Origin: Lophium mytilinum
Taxonomy: Eukaryota
DNA length: 64,000 nucleotides
Direction of reading: 5' to 3'
Assembly (NCBI GenBank): GCA_010093605.1
Contig: MU004184.1
Span: 1,932,801-1,996,800, forward strand
Position numbers and translations under genes: made by a program. The notes under the pieces were generated by a model. The model was not told the origin of the DNA and made no database searches. It saw only the letters and a program-made list of their open reading frames with translations. This document shows, one piece after another, positions 1,931 to 33,240 of the stretch (positions are counted from its first letter, which is position 1; each line of letters opens with the position of its first letter).

Positions 1931-3320
1931 ATGAAAAACCTCACATTCAGGGCGTACCGCCAGCCTGCCAAAAGTATGTCTTTTTGCTCCGAATGTCATC
2001 CTACGTTCTACGTCTTTCTTTTGAGATAAGGAAGAAGTTATACACTACAAACGCTATTTGTGTGTTGAAGTGTAACATATGTATAGCTTAATTGAACCGT
2101 GTGCAAACAGGCAAGGACAAAGATCAGCCACAGCAAGATGGAGCCGCCGATCCCCAGCAGAGCTCCTATCTGAAGCGCCGAGAGCAAGTTCGGAAAGCAC
2201 AACGGTATGTCGGAAGCTCTAAGAGCGGTATGGTATATCATTCTAACCACTACCGTGACTCTCAGAACCCACCGTGAACGCAAGGAGGCATATATCAAAT
2301 CGCTGGAGAGCGAGGTGCTTCAGCTCCGCACCAACGAAACGAAGATTATGCAAGAAACGATGGGCCTCTATAAAGAGATCGGACGACTGCAAAAACTGCT
2401 AGCTCAAAACGGAATCGAAGCATCGCCCTCGCAATATGTCCAGACTGCGCTTTCAAGCTCTGGGGACGAAGTCCCAACCACAACAGTCCTCAGTGTTCGA
2501 CGAAACCGCAAATTGGATCAAATCCACGTGGGGGGAAGTGATTCCCAGACCGGAGCTGAAGACTTCTTCCTTTCCGGAGATAGTTCTAGCGCGCCAAACA
2601 GTCGCTGGAAAAACTTTTTCGGCAAAAAGCAGAGTCAAGCTTCTGACGGAGGAAGTTCCCAAGGTCAACGTGAGTACAGCATAGCATCTTCCAGCACGTA
2701 CTCATTAAATTCTATATGCTAAAACTATATTCGTAGCATCCAACCCAGCAACAAGTCCCAACGCCGGACTTGAAGAAGCACCAGTGGGCTCTATAGCCGT
2801 CGCTCAAATGGACCTCGCAAACGTCGGAATGGAGTTTGTCCTTACGTAAGTCCCCTTCGTTGCTGAAAATTGAAATCGTTCCTTCATCAATGAACGACTG
2901 CTGATACTCCGTAATAGACTAGAAAGCCCCTGTCTCCATCATACCCAGGGCAATCCAAAGGAACCGCATGCCCCATCAGGCCATGCTTTAACCGTATCCG
3001 CTCCCCTGCTCTTCCAAGCACCTTCAGCCTCCGCATTGCAACTCCCGTCATCGAGCTGGGAGGCGCCTCATCTAGGTCTAGAAAGGCTACTGGAGCTCTC
3101 TTCGAACATAGAATTGGGTGACGACGAGATGACGCCTGTGCAGGCATGGAATTACGTCCGTAATCATGACGCTTTTGCGCAGATAGACGTGCAATTATTG
3201 AGGAAGTTGACGCAAGATCTACTGGGGGCAGTTAAATGTTATGGGTTTGGTGCAACTATCGAGCAAACTACGTTGGAGAATCTGGTATTCGACTCTTTCG
3301 TCGTCGGGAGGGTGTTTTGA
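1931..3320 (+). CDS. bZIP transcription factor (multi-exon)
   Basis: Spliced basic region/zipper LKRREQVRKAQRTHRERKEAYIKSLESEVLQLR; C-terminal 'TPVQAWNY...VKCYGFGA' block typical of fungal bZIPs; introns start at about 1974, 2204, 2670, 2846. Confidence 0.85.
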
Positions 3321-3341
3321 CATTTTGGTGAGCGTACGTAT

Positions 3342-3670
3342 GAGCCACGGGTGAGACAAAACTCGTAGCAAACTGCCAGCATCGGCGTGGATTGTGGGAC
3401 AAATCAGGATTTATAGGCACACTCGTTCGCCATTGCCTGGAATACACCCATAGGACTTCAAGCTTGTAGGCGCGATGTCAAGATGCAAGCAGTGTAAATT
3501 AGACTGCCTCTTGATCAAGTTCATGCTTGATAGCTAAGCCACCCCTGACAGTAGCGTAAAGTGAGCAGAATGTGAGCCAAGCAGTAATGAATCCGTGTAC
3601 CTAGACATATGATATATAATGCTGTATTAGCGACAATTTGCAAAGCCTGAAAGCCTGAATATATGGCTCG
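3342..3670. repeat. Degenerate fold-back element, homologous to the dynamin intron element
   Basis: 3472-3563 aligns ungapped to 10146-10237 at 67/92 identity by hand, including exact ATTAGACTGCCTCTTGA; outer limits approximate (GAGCCA...TGGCTC). Confidence 0.7.
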
Positions 3671-3731
3671 ATCGATAAGACATTTGCAAGCGACCGCCGA
3701 CTCGCATATCACGAGCTCGCTGGTTCCCAGA

Positions 3732-5872
3732 CTAACCATCTTGGAGACCCACCCTCAGGTCTCTGACCTTCTCGAGCATCAGTCCATTCCCATAGTCTCT
3801 TTCCCTTGGCAGATCTGTCGCCCAAGTGACTACCGTACCGTTTCTGTCACAGCCTTGGGTCAAAGCCGCAAAATCCAGCATTGGAAACTCTGTAGTACGT
3901 GGCTTAGGCCATCTTGCAGCTACTAAATATGCGACTGCTGCGAGTAGAAGCGTGATACCACCCACGATACCATAAGCAATGACAGTCCATCTTCCAGGCA
4001 CCGAGCGGTGCGATCTCATGCAGTATGCACCGGTGACATGGTTCTCGTCCGGGAGACCGAGCTGTGTTTCGTTGGTTGATGTATCAAGGCCCTTCACTCG
4101 AATTGTTGGGGTGAATAGAAACAACGGAATGGCGAGGATGTTGCGAAGGGTGCTACGGCCCTGGCTTAAGTTGCTGGTGGAGTTGTCATTCCATGCGTAA
4201 AGCTCAGCAGCTACGTTCTGAATTACTGCGTAGCGTTCGGATGAGAGATCGCAACGTGTGAAGTTAGACACTGGAGAAGGTTTGTAGAACATCAAATCAT
4301 AGGCAATGAAGAGATCGGTGGGAGAGATGACTTGTGGTGATGGTGTACCAAGATCCTGGACATCTTGAATCACAAAGCTGGTTCGGGAGAAGGTAACGGT
4401 CGATGTTCTGCGCCATATTGACCATGAAGTTGCCCACGAATTCGCCTGCGTAGCAGAGCCCGACATCGATACTGGGTCGAGACAAGTACCATTTGCGGAG
4501 AGCCCTGACGCACACCACGCAAGACCTATTTAACATCAGTGCCTTTTGCTCCGGAAGTTGACTTTGGATCAAGTGAAGTACCTGAGACCAATTCATTCTC
4601 TTTCGACTTGGCATTACAAAGAGCCAATCCCTGTGAGCCGTTGAAATTACCTCCATAAGTTGAACAATCGGTTTTGCCGAAGGACAGATTCGACGGTGGA
4701 TCCCACATGTCGATTTGATACGCTGGAGCGTTGTATATTTTGAAGGAAGGCGCATCATCGGACCTAGTCGTGAAGGGCAATGGCCTTACAGTATTGTATG
4801 CCCCAGAGATGAGATAGGACGTGCAGGAGTTTGTAGCTCGACAAGATTCACTGATGGGGTCGACTCTATGTACTATAGTCGTATCACTAAGCAAGCCTTG
4901 GACCATAGGAATAGTCTGGAAGCTGGACTCGGTAGCATATATCTTAGCTAAGTTGGGGTCGTAGATACCGAGACCTGCAGTCACGTCCATGGCCTCGACT
5001 GGGAAGAACAAGTCCTTTTGGTTGACATCGGCTAGTCAAGGTTTTATCAGCAATGTTCAGTTTGCATCGAGGTAACAAGCGGCTTACCCATAAGTATAAC
5101 ACCAGGCCCGGGAATTAATCCGATGATAAAGAGCAATCTTCAACGAGACCTTGATTTAGTGTACGGTCATGCAATCCTCGTGCGACGCTTTCACTCACCG
5201 GAAGACGTTCAGGAGCCTTAAAATCGTACGCCGATCTGGCTCCATCCCTCTAGAAGCTAGAAGTATTCTTATCAAACCGAATGGTCCTGTAGAGGAGTGG
5301 ATTGACAAGAAGTTTAAGAGGCTGGGGCTGTCACGCTGGACTGCTCCAATCTTGTCTAAGTTCTCCTCCAATTGGCCCCAAGCGATGGAATCCGAAGCTT
5401 GATTGACGGCTAAGGCAAAAGTGATATCCCCGAGTTTCGACAAGACTGTTAAGAACCATGTCCCTACGGATGCAGATACTAGCCCGAGAAGAGTGCGTCG
5501 GGAGGTTGCTGACGCTGCGACTCCTAACGTGACCACGTAGACTATGACTGCAATGAACAAAAAGTTCCAGGACGTAACTCGACACAATATCGCTCTTTTG
5601 AAAGACGAAGGCTTGGTAGACAACGTTGGAAAAGATCCGGGGTGGCCGACCGCAGTGTTTGCCGCTGTTGAAGATGGCGGTATAGCCTGTGGCGTAGAGC
5701 TGTGCCGACTCGAGTGTGACCCAACAGTAGTCGAGTTGGCTATATTAGGTCTGGCAGTACTTTGCCGTGACACGCTAGCTGATTGAACGCTGGGTGGCGG
5801 ACTCTGGGACGGAGTGGTCGTGGGAAAGGTCAACGAATGAATCGTTGGAGCTGGGCTGCTAGGGGATGACAT
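3732..5872 (-). CDS. Hypothetical multi-pass membrane glycoprotein (multi-exon)
   Basis: Successive ORFs 5872-5195, 5011-4526 and 4466-3732 joined by GT-AG introns; S/T/P-rich N-terminus, hydrophobic helices, Cys-containing lumenal part, C-terminal TM helix. Confidence 0.7.
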
Positions 5873-6824
5873 CTTTCGAACCTATTGCATAGAGCCGGGC
5901 ACGGAGCTGGATACACTGATATTTGAACCTCGCTAATGGTAAAAGAAAAAGAAGGCGCGAAGAAATGCGTCCTAGAACAGTCCGTTGACAAGAGTAAAGA
6001 AGCTGGCAGCTTGTTCCTAGGATCGTCTACCCGCATGCGCGTACGAACAGTCCGGATATATGTGCGGCTCTAGAGACGCGTCTCCCTCTGCATCTGTAGT
6101 AACAGGGATTGCTCAGCTCGTACCTAGGCTGAGTTGATAGCCCGAACGCCTCGGTGAGCACTCGTGACTCCACAGCCAGGCTGCTTGTTGCGTCCAGACA
6201 TGGAGACTATGTTGATATTTGGGAGGAGGCAGACAGTGGCCTGGCCATAACCTTAGAGATTATTGCATTGAATCTCATCTTTGACACTGCATCCTCGTTA
6301 CACGGACCTGCAAAAGATGTCGGAACGCTGGCATTTGGGGGCCGCTAAATTGAAGTTGCTTTTCCGACGAATCCAAGAAATACATGGTTACACAGCGTCG
6401 AAAGGCTTGCATGAGTCGGCTAACCTGGTCAGTACGTCGAATCAAATGACAGTTGAACTCTAGGATCAAACACACTGCTAATTCTTGGAAAGGGGTTCAA
6501 CTGTGCAGGACCAGTAAGACGCCGATCCACTCCAACGTCCATGTCTCATTCCGTCCAAGTTTAGACTCTATGGGACCATCAGCCAGCCACGAAGGCCGAC
6601 CGGGCGTAGAAATGATTCTAATGGCAGAGCAATACGATGGTTGATGCCTAAATTATGATTCCGGGAAACCGCTGACCGGTGTCGAGAAGGACGCGGCTGA
6701 AAGTTAGTTATAATAAGTGAGTCGCGTCCAGTAAAGAGTAGAGCACTAAAGACACGAATTTTATACAGTTTCTTACTTGCTACGCATTCTCTGTGATCCG
6801 TGCCCAACGGGTCGCATCATCAAG

Positions 6825-7410
6825 ATGTTGCTTTCTGCTCTCTTCCTCTGCTTGACAGTACCCATCGTAGCAGCTTCGCGCGTACGCCAAGCGAAACATC
6901 ATGGACTGGTACAACGCCAGGGTTTGACTATCAACGATGTATGCGGGCTCTCTCCGGTCGACTGTGGTGGTGGATGGTGCTGTTACAGTGGCCAGAACTG
7001 CATCAAGACAGGAGGGGATCCACTTTGCGAGGATCTGCTTTTGACGGATGTGGGAGGGTAGGTATAGCAGTTTTTGAAGAGAAACTCGCACGACTCCTGC
7101 TCAGTTTCCTAGTGGTCCAATGACCGTATACGCCATTCAATGGAGCTCGCTCGTAAACGGATTGTCAGCATTGACATCGCTGGGAGTTACTTTGTCCACG
7201 TTTCCCACAACGCTCACGGCTGCGACTGCTCTGCCATCTTATTCGAACTCGGATACTTCTGTGGTCATACCCACTTGGACCGGCTATCCAGCTACGACGT
7301 CGACCACATCGACCTCAAAAGGACCTGCAGCAACAGTAATGCCGGATAAGAAGATTCTTGGGTGGGTACCAGCCGCAGTCGCTCTTGGTGTAGCCGCAGG
7401 TGCGATGTGA
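6825..7410 (+). CDS. Small secreted Cys-rich, S/T-rich, probably GPI-anchored protein (intron 7058-7112)
   Basis: Signal peptide MLLSALFLCLTVPIVAA, Cys module C-x5-C-GGGWCC-x4-C-x7-C, Thr/Ser tract, hydrophobic C-terminus. Confidence 0.75.
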
Positions 7411-8719
7411 TATAGAGAAGGCTGTGAATATGTCGCAGTATCAGGAATCATTGCGTAGCTGCCATATTTATGATGATCAAGGCCGCCTATATCTTTGACT
7501 CGAAGAAAGCGGACGCTGTTAATTAAGTCAATTTCACAAGGTAGCGTTCTTTGCAAGACTTTGACCGCTGTCTGACTTTGATGTGACTTTGCTAACTCGA
7601 CAGTTGCATGAACAAAAGTCGATGAAGTAGTAGCGCGCATCTGTTAAGCAGGTATGAGAATTCCGAAAAGGCTCGTCTTTGATTCAAATCGTACTCGAAG
7701 GCCGCCAAGCCTGTCACAGAGATCCCAGAGCGCGTGAAAGGATAATCGATGAATAGGAAAGGGGAAAGGGGGAGGATGCTAATGGACTTCGATTCGCTGA
7801 TTGATGGATATAGCCTTTGAACTGTCAGAGGTTGCGGTGTGATGATGAAGCTACAGGAATCTACTCTAGATTACACGGAGGGCATGTTTTGCCGAGACCT
7901 TTCGACCTCATCTCCTGAATGACCGGTTGCACACCGCATGCTCTACTTCGACAAGACGCCGCAACTAGGCACCACCCATCCGTAGACGCCCATACTGATC
8001 GATGCATCGCAGTTCCTTACTCATGGCGAAAGTAGCATTAATCAAGCAGTACAGAGAGGCTCAAGCGGCGCGGTAGGTGGCGAAGCAAAGGTTTGCTGAA
8101 CCGACGACCAATCGTTCCCGAAACTGTCTTGCAGCTCATGAAGATGTCGTCTTTCTCAGCGTCTATACCAGTTCTTTGGGCTCGAGTCGGTAGCCTCAGG
8201 AAAGGGCCAGGCAGCACTCCGAATCACACTTCCACTATCTAGGTGCACTGCCGCTCATATCCAAGTACGCCAAGGTCCACTCGTTGGTGTAGATCTAATC
8301 TTCCTGTAACGCTCGGTCTGCTGCGGAAAGGCTCAGAACTTCTGCGCCGTCAATGGTCTGTCAAACCACTGGGCTGAGCCCCCGCCGCATGATGATTGTT
8401 CCCTGGTTACCAGGCCTTTCAACATGCTATGGGTTTCTTGACATCAATAACATATAAAGGGCTCCTACAGTCTTGCAAATAGTACTCTAAGCTTCTTTGT
8501 CTACCTTTCTTACCAGAAAAAGCTAGGATTCTTTTCTTAAGTCTTGTCACTACCTACATCATCCTTTTGTGTCAAGATCTTTCCACAGCGAACGCGACGG
8601 CTGGATGATTTATTGTTCGTACGGTACCCCTCTCAACAACTACAAAACCTCCAGGAACCTCAAACTCAGGGTCTAATCACAACTGCGATAGGTCCCGATC
8701 AGACACCCCAGCTTATGAG

Positions 8720-11462
8720 ATGGTTGGCACAAGTTCACCCAAAAGTGTGGACCCGGGGGCGTTCTCCACGAAGTCCTTAGATACACTACAGAGCGATTCA
8801 CAGCGCAAACTTCTGGATGTAGTCGACAAGTTCAGGCGCGATGGCCTAGCCGATATTCTAAAGTTACCTCAGATCGTAGTCTGCGGAAATCAGTCTAGTG
8901 GAAAGAGCTCCGTACTGGAAGCGATCACGGAGATTCCGTTTCCGCGCAAAGAAAATCTCTGCACACGGTTTGCTACAGAGATAGTCCTTCGACGCGATGT
9001 CACGTCTTCGATATCGACAACGATCATCTCCGACAAGAATCGACCAGATGTCGAGAAAGAGACCTTGAGGAAGTTTGGCAGAGTGATTCATGACTTTTCC
9101 GAGCTGCCTGATCTTATGGATGAGGCGACACAGATGATGGGGATTGGAGAAATTGGTGGTCCAGACTCTCGCGCATTCTCTCGGGACGTTCTGAGAATCG
9201 AGATTTGTGGACCTGATAGGCCACAACTGTAAGTTTCAAGGGTGATTTTGCAGACCTCAGCGCTGACCGGCATATCTAGTACCTTGATAGATTTGCCTGG
9301 GCTCATACAATCGACAAACAAGTCTCAAACCAAGCAAGATGTCGAACTCATTCGAAATATGGTCCGAGAATACATATCTAATGAGCTCACTATCATTCTT
9401 GCGGTCGTTTCGGCAAAAGATGATTACGCAAACCAGGGCATCTTAGAGAGGTGTCGCGAAGTTGACAGCAACGGGAGTCGAACCCTTGGTATCATCACGA
9501 AGCCTGACTTCATTCGTGCAGGCTCGGACAACGAGAAGAACTGGTTCGAATTGGCTCAAAATCGGGACATTTATTTCAAACTCGGTTGGCACATGCTGAG
9601 GAACCGTGGCGATGGAGAATTGGACAGCTCGTTCGAGCAGCGCAATGCATCTGAGGAAGCATTCTTTGCTGAGGGTAATTACCGAGAGCTGCCTCGGGAC
9701 ATGATTGGAATCAGCTCGTTGAAGACGCGATTGAGCCAACTTCAGTACGATCACCTAAAGAAAGAACTTCCAGGCTTAAAGAAAGAGCTAGACGACAAGT
9801 TGAAGGATGTGACAGAGAACCTGGATCGTCTGGGGAGAAAGCGGACTACCGTCTCGGAACAGCGACTATTCCTGACGAGCATTAGTACCGCGGTTTACGA
9901 TCTTCTCAAGTCGGCTGTCACTGGAAACTATGCCGATCAGTTCTTCAGTGCCAATATGAATGCCGCCATTGACTCTCCCGAGAACATACGTCGCCTACGA
10001 GCAGGTACGTAAGCCCCCAATATAGATAAAAAGTTTCCCAGCAATATGTCTGTTTAAAAAACTACTCAGAGAGTATTCCAAGGCAACCACTGTCCACTGG
10101 CACGCCACTGCTTGGGGTACCCCCACAGGTGTCAAAGACTCGAGGGCGATGTCAAGGTTCAAGCACTGCAGATTAGACTGCCTCTTGACTAATTACTTGC
10201 TCAGCAGTCAGGCTACCCCCAGCAGTGGTGTTGAGTGGCTAAGTTGGACAGTGGTATCTTGAAAATCCCTGAAGGAGTGTCTTACGCAGCATAACCTATC
10301 ATTAGTATTGGTTTCCTTACTCTGATTTTGAAAGGTTTGCTAACTTTATTGCCACCTCAAGTTATACAGCATCTCAACATTCAATTCGCTGCTAAGATGC
10401 GTAAGGTTGGCAGCAAGTATCGCATTGGGTCTTCTCAACACGGCCATTCACATGTCAAGGATGCTAGTGATGACAGCGAACTTGAAGACGTTGAAGAGAG
10501 CCCAAGCAGAGAAGCTGAGGAGGACGATACGGCCACAGAGTCAATTTCCGAAGCTACATCTGTCAGCATCACAGCCCCGCCCCAGAAGAGCCTTAGTCGA
10601 CAAGCAGCAATTTCTTGGGTCCTTAAAGTCTTGCAACGATCTCGAGGCTCCGAGTTGCCCGGTAATTTCAACCCAATGCTTATTAGTCAGCTTTTCTGGG
10701 AGCAATCAGAACGTTGGGAGATGCTGGCCTTGGAGCATATTGAGCGAGTCGCTTGTGTTTGCGATAAATTCGTTCGATGCGTGTTGCAGCACGCCGCCGC
10801 TCCTGAAATCGTCACCCGACTCCTTGAGCTGCGAATCGAGGGAGCCCTCGAATCTTCTTTGAGAACAAGCAAAGAGGAGCTCCGGAAGATTATCGCTGAC
10901 AAGGCCGGCCATCCAATGACCTACAATCATTACTACACCACGACTATCCAAAAGATGCGCCAAGACAAGTATAGCAGGGCCTTGATGCGAATGACTGATG
11001 ATGCGAAGGTCACTGTTGACAAGAAGACTTGGGCAGCTGGGTCTGGCTATACTTCGCAAACGTACATTGATCCGCAGATACTGCGAAACAAGATCGACGG
11101 ATCTATCGAGCAAGACATGGACAAATTCTCCGCAGAGGAGGCGCTGGATAGCCAGATTGCTTACTATAAGGTATGGTTTGGCACCCATCGAACTCCATAA
11201 AGCAGTTAGCTAACTCCCACAGGACGAACTCAAGTACTTCATTGCAGCCATCACCAAACAGGTGATCGAGCGTCACCTAGTTTCCACTCTTCCGTTCAAC
11301 ATCCTATCTCCGTCCGTTGTCGTAGAGCTTTCGGATGACGACATCGAGTATGTCGCCGCAGAGCCCGCGGACACCACCCACCAACGAGCCCACTTTGAGA
11401 CTCGCAAAGCGCTGTTGGAGCAAGGGATCACGACGTTTCGGCGCGCGATTGGAGGGCGATAA
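8720..11462 (+). CDS. Dynamin-related GTPase, Mx-like fungal subfamily (introns 9229-9279, 10005-10361, 11171-11222)
   Basis: LPQIVVCGNQSSGKSSVLEA (G1), CTRFATE (G2), DLPG (G3), TKPD (G4); middle domain RRLRAVIQ and RG.ELPGNFNP; GED 'AYYK...QVIERHL'. Confidence 0.92.
10009..10320. repeat. Intronic long imperfect inverted repeat (fold-back element) in dynamin intron 2
   Basis: Nested complementary pairs GTAAG/CTTAC, CCAATA/TATTGG, ACCACTGTCCA/TGGACAGTGGT, CCACTGCT-GGGGTA/TACCCC-AGCAGTGG, GTCAAG/CTTGAC. Confidence 0.8.
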
Positions 11463-32662: not shown

Positions 32663-33223
32663 TCATATTAGGGGTTTTCCGCCCTCCATCCCCACGAATA
32701 TCTCCGCCGCAACCCCAATCACCATCTTCTTCCCTACGAAGAACCGCTGCTCATCCGGCACAATAACATCGGTGTAGAACGGGTCCTTCACCGCTTCCGC
32801 CCAGGCTTCTAAGCTCGGGACCTGGAGCTGCAAGATGCCGTCGTATTGGATCGTGTTTTCGCCTGGGAGACTGAGGATTGAGGAGGTGGCGGGGTTGAGG
32901 TGGATCTGAGATGTTAGCGCGTGGTAAATAGCTAAAGGATGCACAGAATGGATGTGGGGGCGTTCTTGGAATCTTACCTGGCGGTAATCGGTGATCCCGT
33001 GCTTGGGGAACCACGGCGTGACGAGCGGCGCGTGTTTCTCTCTCCAGTATGTGCAGTATTCTTCGTGTGTCAGGGATGGGAGGCGGGTGATGAAGGCGAT
33101 GAGCCATACGCCGCCGCCTTTGTGGTTGTCGCTGTTGCTGAGCGTGGTAACGGTTGGGGTGGCGGATGGATCGGTCGTTGTTGGGCGGGTGAAGGCGATT
33201 GGGGTGGCAGATGGATCGGTCAT
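32663..33223 (-). CDS. EthD-domain protein (intron 32977-32906)
   Basis: 'FITRLPSLTHEEYCTYWREKHAPL...YDGI...DPFY...IVPDEQRF' EthD pattern. Confidence 0.85.
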   Translation of the reverse strand: MTDPSATPIAFTRPTTTDPSATPTVTTLSNSDNHKGGGVWLIAFITRLPSLTHEEYCTYWREKHAPLVTPWFPKHGITDYRQVRFQERPHIHSVHPLAIYHALTSQIHLNPATSSILSLPGENTIQYDGILQLQVPSLEAWAEAVKDPFYTDVIVPDEQRFFVGKKMVIGVAAEIFVGMEGGKPLI

Positions 33224-33240
33224 TGTTGGACGGGTGAAGA
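33151..33240. repeat. 45-bp tandem duplication spanning the EthD start codon
   Basis: Two near-identical units (c)g(g/a)ttggggtggc(g/a)gatggatcggtc(g/a)ttgttgg(g/a)cgggtgaag. Confidence 0.85.

Follow-up and report, generated by a model that had tools for sequence, protein, structure and literature searches.

How new spliceosomal introns originate has long been an open question, least understood in the case of fungal introners. Introner-like elements are selfish DNA which creates new introns. Those of Dothideomycetes (ILEs) were reportedly described by van der Burgt et al. in 2012. A dynamin gene of Lophium mytilinum brings the question down to a single locus: in the window (the whole stretch of DNA analysed, 64 kb in length), one intron of this gene is far longer than its neighbours, is largely self-complementary and shares its centre with a repeat. 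We asked whether it is a mobile element which is itself the intron, an older intron which received a repeat, an intron kept folded for the benefit of splicing, or the host of a small RNA.

The dynamin intron and its inverted repeat

The host gene, identified by Pfam and protein mapping, encodes a dynamin-family GTPase and occupies 8720..11462 (+), its 3′ end lying at about 11462. Its coding exons are located at 8720-9228, 9280-10004, 10362-11170 and 11223-about 11462 (+). Pfam detected Dynamin_N and Dynamin_M in the exon translations on both sides of 10005-10361, and the dynamin reading frame, as followed through the exon frames, is lost at 10004 and regained at 10362. A protein search with exon 9281-10003 as query returned 792 proteins at E<=1e-20 among 3655 candidates, with 120 listed. 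The best match among those listed was a 760-aa 'Dynamin family protein [Lophium mytilinum]', 100% identical, followed among the matches listed by a Mytilinidion resinicola protein (90%). The annotated 760-aa protein is contiguous over the junction, where it reads ...ENIRRLRAVIQHLN..., and maps back to the window as exons flanking 10005-10361. Eighteen homologues, hand-picked as named records from the 120 listed, were aligned, and all (18/18) were collinear and gap-free at the junction. Taken together, exon frames, Pfam domains on both sides, the contiguous protein and the collinear homologues define 10005-10361 as a true GT..AG spliceosomal intron of 357 nt in phase 1. The protein atlas match of the host gene product was a dynamin from Ascomycota.

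The intron carries canonical signals. The 5′ splice site GTACGT is found at 10005..10010 (+), with a second GTAAG at 10009-10013, and the 3′ splice site AAG at 10359..10361 (+), as positioned by the protein, the homologues and the sequence. The earlier note had placed the branch site at CTTAC 10316-10320. The best branch-site match is instead CTAAC at 10340..10344 (+), 18 nt upstream of the acceptor, a motif which recurs in the last intron of the dynamin gene, while CTTAC mirrors GTAAG 10009-10013. The unusual length which the same note had pointed out was borne out, since the other introns of the gene span 51-73 nt: the 5′UTR intron has 73 nt (8619-8691), the other coding intron 51 nt (9229-9279) and the last intron 52 nt (11171-11222). 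Two introns of the neighbouring gene are 56 nt long.

Self-alignment revealed a long imperfect inverted repeat, with a left arm at 10045..10122 and a right arm at 10211..10293 (neither assigned to a strand). Aligned to its own reverse complement, the intron reached a score of 34, compared to 21.1 +/- 3.6 for shuffled sequences (maximum of 200 shuffles, 32). The pair ACCACTGTCCA/TGGACAGTGGT matches at 11/11 positions and the arms 10102-10131 and 10202-10231 are 77% complementary. The long arms are mostly internal and not strictly terminal; near the intron ends, GTAAGCCCCCAATA and TATTGGTTTCCTTAC mirror each other just weakly, the right arm of this mirror stopping 41 nt short of the intron end. 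At the borders, the only duplicated letters are AG (10003-10004 and 10360-10361), explicable by the splice consensus alone.

The predicted fold of the whole intron has an energy of -105.6 kcal/mol, against -94.2 +/- 4.9 kcal/mol in dinucleotide shuffles (z -2.33, equalled by 3/100 shuffles). For the core, 10080-10262, the z-score was -3.19 on the + strand (1/200 shuffles as good) and -3.58 on the - strand (0/200 shuffles as good). The structure of the intron is thus real, at a level only moderately above chance. Because both strands fold equally strongly, the hairpin is a DNA-level palindrome, that is, an imperfect inverted repeat, and not an RNA-specific fold. Every one of the nested stems named at the outset was found in the sequence. 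The proposal that the intron is almost entirely one rod-like hairpin holds as far as the long imperfect inverted repeat is concerned, with a strength that is moderate (z -2.3 for the whole, -3.2 for the core).

Copies of the intron elsewhere in the genome

We aligned contigs of three public runs, X1 and X2 (one sample) and X3, to positions 3200-10700 at a likeness of at least 80%. All three runs are from the same organism, and each contains the dynamin locus almost entirely. The mark 'RNA?' given to X3 is a guess; the run was treated as containing spliced transcripts because its contigs skip four segments, 4524-4579, 6420-6475, 8619-8691 and 9229-9279, through which the contigs of X1 and X2 run.

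In all, 274 (X1), 293 (X2) and 111 (X3) records were aligned, against a single contig over the flanks. Summed contig depth in X1, which is not equal to copy number, was 13366 in the bin 9977-10227 and 1995 in the bin 10228-10478, compared to 162 in the flanks. At position 10166, where the dynamin copy has C, G was read in 74, 75 and 35 distinct contigs of X1, X2 and X3, respectively. These contigs delimit a core common to a high-copy dispersed repeat, at 10095..10245 (no strand assigned), which is present in at least 74-75 contigs and is spanned by record 6. Thus, the dispersed, structured repeat family suggested by the earlier note was recovered, both as many contig copies and as an inverted repeat. 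Exon bins remained at single-copy depth, which rules out a segmental duplication of the dynamin gene.

Two layers can be distinguished within the intron. Loose contig ends cluster at 10095, 10238 and 10248, and contigs which match the core only continue into sequence conserved among themselves, with a loose-end agreement of 0.76-0.85 at 10095. Read by eye from these loose ends, the 17-nt consensus of the main family before 10095 is the reverse complement of the one behind 10248. The main high-copy family, as far as its loose ends can be read, would therefore also form a hairpin, with arms different from those of the intron. Two subfamilies emerge, the arm sequences of which differ while each pair is self-complementary; the pair of the intron is that described above, ACCACTGTCCA/TGGACAGTGGT, and the intron does not carry the arms of the main family. 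Its outer parts are much rarer than the core, with a summed depth of about 6-18 times the flank value, compared to about 240 times at 10166.

The contigs which match these outer parts are 84-90% identical to the intron and their borders fall exactly at GT (10004/10005) and AG (10361/10362). At the left border, the match begins at 10004 in a contig of 17.7 kb (record 2) and at 10005 in a contig of 6.2 kb (record 3); at the right border, it stops at 10361 in a contig of 18.6 kb (record 8) and at 10362 in a contig of 3.3 kb (record 16). In X1, loose ends before 10005 belong to six contigs, and the mutual agreement of their flanks is poor (0.48), as expected of unique flanks. Since records 2, 3, 7 and 8 bridge the joins between outer part and core (10094/10095 or 10245/10246), the composite of outer parts and core is the unit which is repeated. 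No second full-length copy was found within one contig of X1-X3, every piece breaking inside the core.

Searches in other collections returned chance matches or none. The 17-nt core was found at 22 loci of a metagenome scan, none of which was homologous to the intron (0/22, nhmmer E<=1), so that these are chance matches, and the 17-nt core motif gave 0 matches in viral contigs.

One further copy, hereafter copy B, is located in the window itself, at 3418..3611 (+). nhmmer matched the intron to 3418-3564 (E 1.9e-16) and to no other place in the 64-kb window; contigs of other copies carry the alignment onward to 3605/3611, and from these alignments and the loose ends copy B keeps the main-family form to about 3605-3611. 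The likeness first seen between the centre of the intron and 3472-3563 was reproduced exactly, with 67/92 ungapped matches and transitions making up 19/25 differences. Thirteen of these transitions are C>T/G>A relative to the intron copy and 6 run in the opposite direction, a bias which is suggestive of RIP-like decay, although the changes are too few to claim it. Copy B is a diverged member of the high-copy family. It sits between two convergent genes, outside any intron, and an X3 contig (record 17) passes straight through it, unspliced. Its fold was no better than that of shuffled sequences (z +0.83 for 3396-3590 and z +0.56 for 3385-3630), and its borders are too decayed to read for a duplication.

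These data are best accounted for by an introner-like element, one copy of which makes up the 357-nt intron; to this reading we assign a probability of roughly 0.7. It is favoured because the borders of the repeat coincide with the splice sites, because the unit has its own branch site, and because of its length and its above-average predicted structure. Traits of introners are indeed recognisable here: a functional intron whose donor, branch site and acceptor are all canonical; a length exceeding that of regular introns in the same and the neighbouring gene; and a structure stabler than expected, by a modest effect (z -2.33, -3.19). The full-length copy of the element would be the intron itself, 10005..10361 (+), with records 2, 3, 8 and 16 marking the borders of the repeat. 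Such an element would come equipped with a donor, a branch site and an acceptor, and could be excised by the ordinary spliceosome wherever it inserts in a transcribed gene. Its GT-to-AG unit would recur elsewhere in the genome at 84-90% identity, and its central ~150 nt would be common to a far more abundant palindromic repeat family which includes copy B (3418-3611). Of the earlier idea of an intron-generating element, the part stating that a copy is bounded exactly by splice sites stands as observed; the dynamin intron was probably gained by insertion, and the other copies of the unit are probably introns as well.

The main rival is favoured by the excess of core over outer parts. An ordinary older intron may later have been invaded by the high-copy palindromic repeat: the core 10095-10245 is many times commoner than the outer parts, and copy B, of the same family, lies outside any intron. 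Withdrawal of the core leaves about 206 nt (357 - 151), near the ~202 nt of a consensus intron catalogued for this species, which is a numerical coincidence only. Collemare et al. (2013, PMC3609843) describe repeats nested in regular introns of Rhytidhysteron, Fusarium graminearum and Sclerotinia and caution against exactly this confusion, as a regular intron which has taken up a high-copy repeat can pass for an ILE. Nevertheless, a late guest in a single old intron does not account for outer parts joined to the core in other contigs (records 2, 3, 7 and 8), with matches ending at splice sites. Moreover, the arms typical of the main family, which the insertion of a whole element would have carried along, are missing from the intron. 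We consider this scenario unlikely. Within the introner-like reading, a nested origin of the unit itself, with the core inside the outer parts, is possible, since the core is so much commoner than the outer parts.

Role of the hairpin

The earlier note had attributed the clean splicing of the element to its fold, by which donor and branch point would be brought close to each other. According to this view, the rod is kept because a shorter donor-to-branch distance allows an intron of 357 nt to be spliced in a fungus whose introns are short. As a measure, we took the smallest number of steps which leads, within the predicted structure, from the initial base of the intron to the branch A, and compared it with that of 60 shuffled interiors. 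In the minimum free energy (MFE) structure the donor region does pair, with 10279-10291, and the path to the branch A takes 9 steps. This is, however, not exceptional: shuffled interiors gave 21.2 +/- 11.1 steps, 12/60 being as short, and the ensemble mean path was 16.7 compared to 20.4 +/- 8.2 in shuffles, with 18/60 as short. Since sequences of such length and composition generally bring their ends together, there is no specific support for fold-aided splicing. In addition, the opposite strand folds as well, and an unspliced form is present among the X3 contigs (record 19, in which the intron is joined to exon 3). The proposal was not upheld by these comparisons and appears improbable.

Some details of the X3 contigs bear on the spliced state of the locus. 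X3 contig 18 stops matching at 10002, leaving 30 letters unplaced, and X3 contig 19 ends at 10389. With an assembly graph for these contigs which we take to be of k=31, such ends would fit coexisting spliced and unspliced forms, a weak hint. The joint 10004|10362 was absent among the splice joints listed for the X1-X3 contigs. Over 10256-10325, letters of other copies are almost absent from X3; this reflects a stretch without cover.

The other role suggested at the outset, that of an intron-hosted small-RNA precursor (a snoRNA or a hairpin-derived small RNA), could draw on the long hairpin within the intron and on the presence of the repeat family in the contigs of X3, a run treated as containing spliced transcripts, but it is very improbable: across the window, 0 Rfam families reached the gathering score, and within 9950-10420 there were 0 even when E up to 10 was allowed; no tRNA-like gene was found; the fold is strand-symmetric; and among the dozens of diverged copies, copy B does not fold better than shuffles. 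Covariance models of the known structured RNA families (Rfam 15, including snoRNA and miRNA) gave 0 matches to the element, just two chance-level Rfam matches occurred around copy B (E 0.47 and 7.4), and no tRNA-like genes were found in 3300-10500.

Returning to the introner-like element, the rod-like hairpin would reflect its inverted-repeat architecture and would be tied to spreading more likely than to splicing. The arms differ in sequence between the two subfamilies and are self-complementary in each, and this suggests that the hairpin, or inverted repeat, matters for propagation and not for splicing.

Relation to known introners

According to Collemare et al. 2013 (PMC3609843), Dothideomycete ILEs are multi-copy introns with canonical signals which are about twice as long as regular introns and fold at a lower energy. 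The dynamin intron resembles them in being a multi-copy, intron-sized unit with canonical signals, much longer than regular introns and with a stabler predicted structure, in a Dothideomycete host. It differs from them in that its core is common to a far more abundant repeat which is also found outside introns, and in that the full intron is represented by no more than about 6-18 depth-equivalents.

Introners have already been counted in this species. For Lophium mytilinum, Supplementary Table 5 of Gozashti et al. 2022 (PMC9860276) gives a total of 17 introners, made up of 4 recovered initially plus 2 outside genes and 11 inside genes, with a fraction of 0.88 in genes. The available part of Datasets S1/S2 of Gozashti et al. 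2025 (PMC12130899) contains one Lophium mytilinum family of 4 copies, assigned to the 'Unknown' class, all gt..ag and placed in four host mRNAs; its consensus intron measures about 202 nt (splice_5 23, splice_3 224). The species is the same as that of the 100%-identical protein, and the 17 copies counted in the 2022 table are comparable in order of magnitude to the depth-equivalents found for the outer parts. The lengths, about 202 nt for the catalogued family and 357 nt for the dynamin intron, are nevertheless different, in a comparison by description with a catalogue which holds no sequences in the parts available. The core motif was not found on either strand in the accessible supplements of the 2025 survey (PMC12130899), which are sequence-free files. 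No paper was found whose main text contains both 'introner' and Lophium mytilinum.

The closest structural analogue is provided by the sister (stw)introns of Hypoxylaceae, which, according to the available portion of Fekete et al. 2021 (PMC8469720), proliferate, carry inverted repeats of 45-55 nt and have no TSD. They share with the dynamin intron the long inverted repeats, the potential for double-stranded intron RNA and the fact that a true intron exists on one strand only. In contrast, they belong to another fungal class, and the dynamin intron has a high-copy non-intronic relative. The 10-nt palindrome of the Hypoxylaceae elements, WTTCTAGAAA, is absent from the intron 10005-10361. A [D1,2] stwintron arrangement was considered for the locus and ruled out, as G 10004 is exonic and opens the Val codon of RRLRA-V-IQ (protein and homologues).

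A comparison can also be made with the MITE-type introners of algae, which in the accessible part of PMC9860276 appear as inverted-repeat, non-coding, high-copy DNA spliceable as introns, features to which the dynamin intron and its relatives are similar. Unlike these, the dynamin intron displays no recognisable TSD beyond the trivial AG/AG, and its inverted repeat is mostly internal. Ascomycete introner families, for their part, are described in the same portion of that survey as being without TIRs or TSDs (PMC9860276).

The introner subfamily could tentatively be derived from the high-copy, MITE-like palindromic repeat, by acquisition of new arms carrying donor, branch site and acceptor; we hold this descent to be possible, at odds well below even.

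The dynamin intron adds one more case to a phenomenon already described, in a species for which introners are on record. There is some novelty in that the intron-bounded unit has its core in common with a far more abundant palindromic repeat which is also found outside introns. A spliced, intron-bounded repeat and an abundant, non-intronic palindromic relative make a natural pair in which to probe the descent of introners from DNA repeats and the role of the hairpin in mobility. If a MITE-like parent is true, the hairpin or inverted repeat would be needed for propagation, and fungal introners, hitherto described as TIR/TSD-free and thought to be RNA-mobilised, would have a DNA repeat as their parent.

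Contigs of run X3 across the dynamin-family gene

The dynamin-family gene carries an intron in its 5′UTR. One contig of X3, a public sequencing run taken to hold spliced transcripts, leaves out positions 8619-8691 of the window, a 73-nt stretch with GT..AG borders; because this skipped segment lies upstream of the start codon (8720), it is a 5′UTR intron of the gene.

A second X3 contig of 414 letters (record 19) contains the dynamin intron in unspliced form together with exon 3, covering window positions 10005-10389. It differs from the window by 5 letters and 1 gap, and its first 30 letters were not placed. This contig may derive from RNA that kept the intron, or from an assembly path into which further copies of the repeat were mixed.

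A probable short exon in the neighbouring gene

In the neighbouring gene on the minus strand, 167 nt of the window (5032-5198) are replaced by 50 unplaced letters in an X3 contig. This is most simply explained by two short introns flanking a micro-exon of about 50 nt, an exon too short to be placed.

Other repeats in the window

A G-rich unit of 44-45 nt occurs twice in tandem at 33151-33239, the copies being 91% identical. Separately, an AT-rich element of about 524 bp was observed at 1105-1628; its sequence bears no relation to that of the intron at 10005-10361. The borders of this AT-rich element are formed by 56-nt terminal inverted repeats, with arms 95% complementary. The TA dinucleotide at both outer ends, inside the reported arm coordinates, gives it the appearance of a Tc1/mariner-type MITE.
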